Source: Escherichia coli (GTDB taxonomy: Bacteria > Pseudomonadota > Gammaproteobacteria > Enterobacterales > Enterobacteriaceae). From it: a stretch of DNA of 64,000 nt. Where the stretch lies: NCBI RefSeq assembly GCF_001677475.2, contig NZ_CP015229.1, one strand, 5' to 3'. How positions within the stretch are numbered: position 1 is the stretch's first letter; every line of letters starts with the position of its first letter. A program made the position numbers and the translations under genes. Positions 31,678 through 31,990 of this stretch are shown piece by piece. The notes under the pieces are model-generated. The model searched no databases, was not told the DNA's origin, and saw only the letters and a list, made by a program, of their open reading frames with translations.

Positions 31678-31958
31678 AGCGTTACCTCAAAATGAGTCAG
31701 TAAATTGTGCTTATTTTAGCATTTGGCCTGGCCCGCCCGGCTCGACTGTGATTGCAGAAAGCCTTTTTCTTCCAGACTTCTATCATGGCGTAAAAATCAA
31801 AAAATTACCTGCTTTATTGTGGCGATATTCCATGGGATGGATTAGCACATTTATCTTCGTTTTGCGAATTACATGACAGTCCGAAACAAGATGAAAAAGT
31901 ATTTAAAAAAGGGGGAGGAAGAATGAGTAGAACGAATTATTCTGAACCAGAAAGCAAT

Positions 31959-31979
31959 CGGGCAGCGTCGTGCTGCCCG
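31959..31979 (-). terminator. hairpin 12 nt downstream of the dapD stop
   Basis: CGGGCAGC gtcgt GCTGCCCG, 8-bp stem. Confidence 0.5.
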
Positions 31980-31990
31980 TGTGCATACTT

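Follow-up and report, generated by a model that had tools for sequence, protein, structure and literature searches.

The gene yaeI has been recorded in pangenome work on Escherichia coli as an accessory orthologous group that is enriched in phylogroup A (PMC5422975). Its product is a calcineurin-like metallophosphoesterase: the YaeI protein of K-12 scores 531 bits against NCBIfam PRK11340 and is also matched by Pfam Metallophos, and its match to a twin-arginine signal is borderline. In the literature consulted, nothing specific was found on the biochemistry of YaeI or on the spacer between yaeH and dapD. In K-12 MG1655 (dapD-yaeI-yaeH, NC_000913.3 183709-185947), yaeI (b0164, 813 bp) lies between these two genes, as the first-pass annotation of the present sequence had stated (about 0.8 kb). 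A second relative is the two-gene locus of E. albertii, Escherichia sp. MOD1-EC7003 and Pseudocitrobacter cyperus, in which yaeI and a further gene, orf236, are both intact.

The stretch of DNA analysed here, 64 kb in length and referred to as the window, resembles each of these systems in part. As in the E. coli pangenome, the presence or absence of yaeI concerns a fixed site between core genes. Unlike a plain accessory loss, however, the absent state in the window is not an empty site but a scar of 128 bp that includes the remnant of a second gene, and, unlike a plain accessory polymorphism of E. coli, this scar allele is also found in another Escherichia species. The K-12 locus shares with the window the flanking genes, their order and the terminator stem, and differs from it in holding yaeI with short untranslated flanks (842 bp) and a full U tract behind the terminator. 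The two-gene locus has the insertion site and the yaeH-proximal sequence of the window, where both genes are gone and only the last 16 codons of orf236 are matched. The feature is an ordinary accessory-gene polymorphism that had already been recorded, with the window in the majority form. The window most probably has the yaeI-less form of an old dimorphism at dapD-yaeH in Escherichia, a form that descends from a decayed two-gene insert.

The junction between dapD and yaeH

The genes degP (28501-29925, + strand), cdaR (30062-31237, + strand), yaeH (31291-31677, - strand), dapD (31991-32815, - strand) and glnD (32846-35518, - strand) are open reading frames of the window that follow one another in the same order and orientation as in K-12, with the flanking core genes intact. 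The product of yaeH is a DUF3461 protein of 128 aa (NCBIfam PRK13677, E 2e-73; Pfam DUF3461) that is 100% identical to YaeH of K-12, and that of dapD has 274 aa, the gene being named dapD in the annotation of the matching genomes. A stretch of 22 kb around the locus is colinear with 5416 genomes from a set of 5426 complete E. coli genomes in which Shigella was not included. The top identity found in this set for positions 22000-44000 of the window is only 98.8%, a ceiling which may mean that the lineage is scarcely represented among these genomes, or that it is a Shigella.

The start codon of yaeH ends at 31677 and the stop codon of dapD begins at 31991, leaving a spacer of 313 bp (31678-31990), in exact agreement with the non-coding gap given in the first-pass annotation. 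No match to yaeI was obtained anywhere in the 64 kb, either by tblastn with K-12 YaeI or by blastn with the K-12 yaeI region, and the translations of the spacer gave no match to the YaeI family (NCBIfam PRK11340, Pfam Metallophos) even at E 10. For the strain, the consequence would be a plain loss of YaeI, with dapD and yaeH intact. The spacer of K-12 measures 1027 bp and contains yaeI; K-12 does not have the 313-bp junction with the gene placed elsewhere. The difference in spacer size is 714 bp, close to the roughly 750 bp given in the first-pass annotation.

Ungapped comparison of the two spacers delimits what they have in common. On the yaeH side, the 150 bases at 31678-31827 are present in both and 147/150 are identical (3 mismatches), and on the dapD side the 35 bases at 31956-31990 are identical to K-12 (35/35). 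The stretch between these differs altogether, with 128 bp (31828-31955) in the window and 842 unrelated bp in K-12. The earlier statement that yaeI is absent is thus borne out, but the absence is not a clean one, since it is accompanied by window-specific sequence. Alignment across Escherichia alleles shows that 31678-31827 (- strand) is a yaeH upstream region common to alleles with and without yaeI.

The dapD-side flank contains an intrinsic terminator of dapD (31949-31979, - strand), in which a hairpin at 31959-31979 precedes a U tract that is interrupted (31949-31958); the first-pass annotation had also noted a dapD terminator hairpin in this region. Seven of the 8 pairs in the stem are G-C, and the fold has an energy of -23 kcal/mol with z = -4.6. 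The hairpin begins 11 nt past the stop codon of dapD, and ATTGCTTTCT comes after it. Its stem does not differ from that of K-12, whereas the sequence behind the stem reads AUUGCUUUCUGG in the window versus AUUUUUUUG in K-12. The interrupted U tract of the window is weakened relative to that of K-12, and some read-through toward yaeH would be possible.

Remnant of orf236 in the spacer

The gene that follows yaeI in the two-gene alleles codes for 235-245 aa and was found in this arrangement in Escherichia sp. L014, E. albertii (L097 and L098), Pseudocitrobacter cyperus (L099) and locus L092. Its family comprises no more than 19 protein clusters and corresponds to no Pfam or NCBIfam model. It is best described as an uncharacterised companion gene, whose predicted fold is confident and has no solved relative. 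Locus L092 (GCA_033043295.1), which is labelled Salmonella enterica, shares about 82% identity with the window in glnD-dapD; its two-gene cassette (yaeI-orf244) lies at the same site, and a gene for an IS110-family transposase is found just past yaeH.

The 3' end of orf236 can be recognized in the window at 31797-31848 (- strand) as a remnant of 16 codons and the stop codon, within which an in-frame stop occurs. The match was obtained by tblastn, by a fixed-register test and by alignment. In the tblastn search of orf236 against the window spacer, the last 16 residues, CEPVPWGIARIKQVIF, align with C*SIPWNIATIKQVIF at 31800-31847 on the - strand, with the stop codon in register and an E value, within a small search space, of 6.6e-6. 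Part of this remnant (31828-31848) is missing from K-12-type alleles, where a shorter piece reading VNFITRIKQVIF* comes after the yaeI stop codon. The 21 nt located just upstream of the shared anchor were compared, in fixed register and with a binomial test, to the 3' ends of four orf236 sequences. Matches were found at 12-14/21 positions (p 7e-5 to 2e-3) for the window, strain 536 and Escherichia sp. E1V33, at 2-4/21, which is the level of chance, for K-12, BL21 and L005, and at 6-8/21, which is not significant, for E. whittamii. The window therefore retains about 21 nt of orf236 that K-12-type alleles have lost, a short remnant whose significance depends on this binomial test. Of yaeI itself, no remnant was shown in the window spacer. 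Alternatively, the window sequence ATGGAATAT could be the start codon region of orf236 fused to its 3' end. A rearranged yaeI-less allele is present in E. coli BS-04 (L084, 348-647); it lacks 28 bp that include the extra orf236 remnant, has an A-rich insertion of 13 bp and differs in sequence where a 23-codon open reading frame starts in other alleles.

The extra orf236 sequence bears on the origin of the window allele. A simple, one-step history would take it from a K-12-type allele that carried yaeI only, by a later deletion of yaeI during which filler DNA was added at the junction. The near identity of both flanks to those of K-12 (147/150 and 35/35 bases) would be expected from such an event, and the sequence in the middle of the spacer that has no assignable source could be the filler. 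Nonetheless, the 21 nt of the orf236 3' end that are missing in K-12, BL21 and L005 are present in the window, and the difference between 12-14/21 matches and 2-4/21 matches would have to be explained by a deletion, which cannot restore sequence. Because the window keeps orf236 sequence that is absent from K-12-type alleles, it is not derivable from those by deletion, and this history is unlikely. For the same reason, namely the additional 21 nt or so of orf236 in the window, the two alleles would be independent deletion products, and a two-gene ancestor with independent deletions would be the simplest history of the locus.

Distribution of the alleles in Escherichia and other genera

Of the 5426 complete E. 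coli genomes, 5424 have the junction. In 3338/5426 (61.5%) the window-type segment is present, with one copy in each genome, and in 2084/5426 (38.4%) yaeI is present. Together, the two states account for 5422 of the 5424 genomes with the locus, which makes them essentially exclusive and exhaustive. The first-pass annotation had therefore been right that this strain lacks yaeI, but to regard the absence as a peculiarity of the strain is not tenable, since the yaeI-less allele is that of the majority (3338 versus 2084). The survey across phylogroups that it had proposed shows HS (A), IAI1 (B1), IAI39 (F), UTI89 and 536 (B2) and O157:H7 (E) without yaeI, and K-12 and BL21 (A) and O111 (B1) with it. 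Both states are thus found inside phylogroup A and inside phylogroup B1, and the distribution does not track phylogroups.

The alleles of yaeI are divergent within E. coli, with 94.2% identity between K-12 and BL21 and 87.0% between K-12 and D10 (a difference of up to 13%), while dapD differs by up to 5% (95.0% identity between the window and D10). Together with the occurrence of both states in A and in B1, this divergence fits an exchange of alleles by way of the conserved flanks. The polymorphism extends beyond E. coli. Escherichia sp. E1V33 (L008) has the same yaeI-less allele, although its identity to the window over 7.4 kb (a locus of 7384 bp) is no more than 90.9%, a species-level divergence. 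Its AT-rich segment in the middle of the spacer is 93.8% identical to that of the window, and the 23-codon open reading frame is also there. The yaeI-less scar allele is, then, old or crosses species. The other state likewise occurs outside E. coli: yaeI was found, at 82-89% amino-acid identity to K-12, in E. albertii, E. whittamii and two further Escherichia species.

A scan with YaeH, for which one genome per species was taken, returned 80 loci. In approximately 70 species of other genera (Citrobacter, Klebsiella, Enterobacter, Raoultella, Kluyvera, Cedecea, Kosakonia, Atlantibacter and others), the gap between dapD and yaeH is 110-126 bp and contains neither yaeI nor the window segment. The terminator and the yaeH upstream sequence of these genera are also different; an alignment is obtained only for the dozen bases that precede the start codon, and the remainder of 31678-31827 is unrelated to their spacer. 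Relative to the spacer of about 110 bp that is found across the family, each of the two E. coli alleles is thus a derived state.

Several other loci carry genes at this site. In Superficieibacter (L088) and in locus L089, the arrangement is glnD-dapD-cargo-yaeH with yaeI as the only cargo, and in Enterobacter sp. kpr-6 (L100) orf236 is present without yaeI, behind a remnant of the yaeI leader. The spacer of Enterobacter wuhouensis (L055:961-3249) contains an open reading frame of 762 aa on the opposite strand, and that of Enterobacter sp. BIGb0383 (L063:3119-3292) one of 57 aa with a lipoprotein-like signal. The dapD-yaeH site seems prone to insertions. Among the relatives of YaeI, identity drops from 81-99% within Escherichia to 64-69% in a next group, with Superficieibacter as the named match, and further to about 45-58% for Verrucomicrobia and others, a pattern which suggests that the gene was acquired horizontally.

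It could be argued from this distribution that the short spacer is the ancestral state of E. coli and that yaeI was inserted later in the K-12 lineage, where it replaced 128 bp. The yaeI-less allele is indeed the majority state, most Enterobacteriaceae have no yaeI, and, outside the enterobacteria, YaeI has its nearest relatives in Verrucomicrobia and similar groups, an indication of horizontal origin. However, the spacer of the window is not of the ancestral type of about 110 bp. It has the cassette-type terminator and the 150 bp of yaeH upstream sequence in common with the alleles that carry yaeI, and a match of 48 nt identifies in it the 3' end of orf236, the gene located behind yaeI in two-gene alleles. 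The presence of yaeI in E. albertii, E. whittamii and the two further Escherichia species is also at odds with an insertion confined to the K-12 lineage, and such an order of events is quite improbable.

The AT-rich segment and the history of the locus

Between the orf236 remnant and the terminator there is a segment of about 100 bp (31849-31949, to which no strand is assigned) that occurs only in yaeI-less alleles and has 35% GC, versus 52% for the window. Several sources were considered for it and rejected. Smith-Waterman comparison with five yaeI alleles gave its best alignment in the 5' part of the gene, with z of approximately 1.8 and a score equalled by 21/300 shuffles, which does not support a decayed yaeI, and a nhmmer profile of eight cassettes matches only at the flanks. 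Comparison with orf236 or other cassette variants (L092, L014, L088, L089, L098, L099 and L100) yielded only the terminal 16 codons, and comparison with the ancestral spacer of about 110 bp from other genera gave a best score equal to the shuffle mean. A dispersed repeat, or a sequence borne by plasmids or phages, was also discarded: in E. coli genomes and plasmids the segment is single copy and restricted to this locus. Seven apparent plasmid matches belong to records of 0.4-4.9 Mb, four of which are chromosome-sized, and were taken as chromosomal sequence. The search against Rfam returned only sroE, at 21 bits versus a gathering score of 51, and this match lies on the terminator hairpin.

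Within the segment, a purine tract, GGGGGAGGAAGA, is found on the + strand. The first-pass annotation had noted it at 31910-31921; comparison with the letters of the window places it one base further, at 31911-31922. Its length varies among strains, and GGGGGGAGG, GGGGAAG, GGGGG and GGAGG were observed as variants among 14 alleles. The tract is followed by an open reading frame of 23 codons (31923-31994, + strand, from the list of open reading frames), the 3' half of which overlaps the terminator and the stop codon of dapD. This frame is intact in 13/14 sampled alleles and absent from strain BS-04, and its substitutions include both silent and amino-acid-changing ones. It matches no protein family in Pfam or NCBIfam, has never been annotated in RefSeq records, and is probably not a gene. 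The consensus scan of the spacer revealed no sigma-70-like promoter on either strand.

These features bear on two readings that assign a role to the segment. The broader of them would see in the locus a very old polymorphism across species, whose three states (two-gene, yaeI-only and scar) are kept by selection and not by drift, with a small functional element in the AT-rich segment, be it the 23-codon frame or a promoter that feeds yaeH; this is decidedly unlikely. The other reading is that the segment is a functional replacement, i.e., a small protein of 23 codons, a small RNA or a promoter, that has been selected in yaeI-less strains. The Shine-Dalgarno-like GGAGG that lies 4 nt before the ATG would agree with it, as would the intact frame in 13/14 sampled alleles, among them the distinct species E1V33, and a core of 38 nt (31859-31896) that is invariant in the 14 alleles, including the rearranged one of BS-04, but for one C-to-T change in E1V33. 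Nonetheless, neither strand has a promoter-like site, no Rfam or protein family is matched, the frame is without annotation in RefSeq, and the Shine-Dalgarno-like tract varies in length. The overlap of half of the frame with the dapD terminator and stop codon would alone be enough for its conservation, whereas the free half has amino-acid-changing as well as silent substitutions and the allele of BS-04 does without the frame altogether. A selected replacement is, for these reasons, very unlikely.

In single strains yaeI is hit by mobile DNA: in strain 1506 (hit H71) it is interrupted by IS1, and in E. coli EC0026B (L095) by an element with an integrase and a DUF3644 gene. At the breakpoints themselves, the short direct repeats that the first-pass annotation had proposed to look for are lacking; neither direct nor inverted repeats were found in the window, in K-12 or in the two-gene allele L014, where only short chance matches occur, and the yaeI-orf236 cassette contains no integrase or transposase. 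The loss of yaeI through excision of a mobile element (insertion sequence, transposon or integrative island), for which the different cargo among genera and the single strains with IS1 or an integrase-bearing island could be invoked, is scarcely credible against breakpoints without repeats, a cassette without recombinase genes of either kind and a site without a tRNA target.

The decay of a two-gene insert is retained as the most plausible account of the locus. It would have started from a dapD-yaeH spacer of about 110 bp, as found in most Enterobacteriaceae. Into this site, in an ancestor of Escherichia and also in a few other lineages, an insert would have arrived that consisted of yaeI, whose product is a metallophosphoesterase bearing a signal sequence of twin-arginine type, and behind it the uncharacterised orf236 (about 236 aa), and that brought its own terminator on the dapD side and its own upstream sequence on the yaeH side. 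In K-12-type alleles, orf236 would then have been lost and yaeI kept, and in window-type alleles yaeI and nearly all of orf236 would have been lost, so that the 16 final codons of orf236 remain, together with about 100 bp of AT-rich DNA that cannot be assigned, the terminator hairpin and the yaeH upstream region. Homologous recombination through the flanking genes, which are highly conserved, would then have carried the alleles from one Escherichia lineage to another as well as within lineages. The direction and the number of these events are deduced from a handful of loci, and no allele intermediate between the two-gene form and that of the window was found. Given that the bases at 31849-31949 can be traced neither to yaeI nor to orf236 nor to any other sequence, the deletion model leaves them unaccounted for.

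The gene concerned is a poorly characterised and dispensable phosphodiesterase, and its presence or absence matters little for biology at large. K-12 represents the minority state at this locus, and a gene that is missing relative to K-12 is not to be taken as a deletion specific to the strain. To the polymorphism of yaeI that was already known, the present analysis adds the scar of a second gene and the probable independent decay of a two-gene insert, which is a modest evolutionary footnote and no new kind of system. On a small scale, the locus shows neatly how the decay of an inserted cassette yields different scars, which then circulate by recombination.
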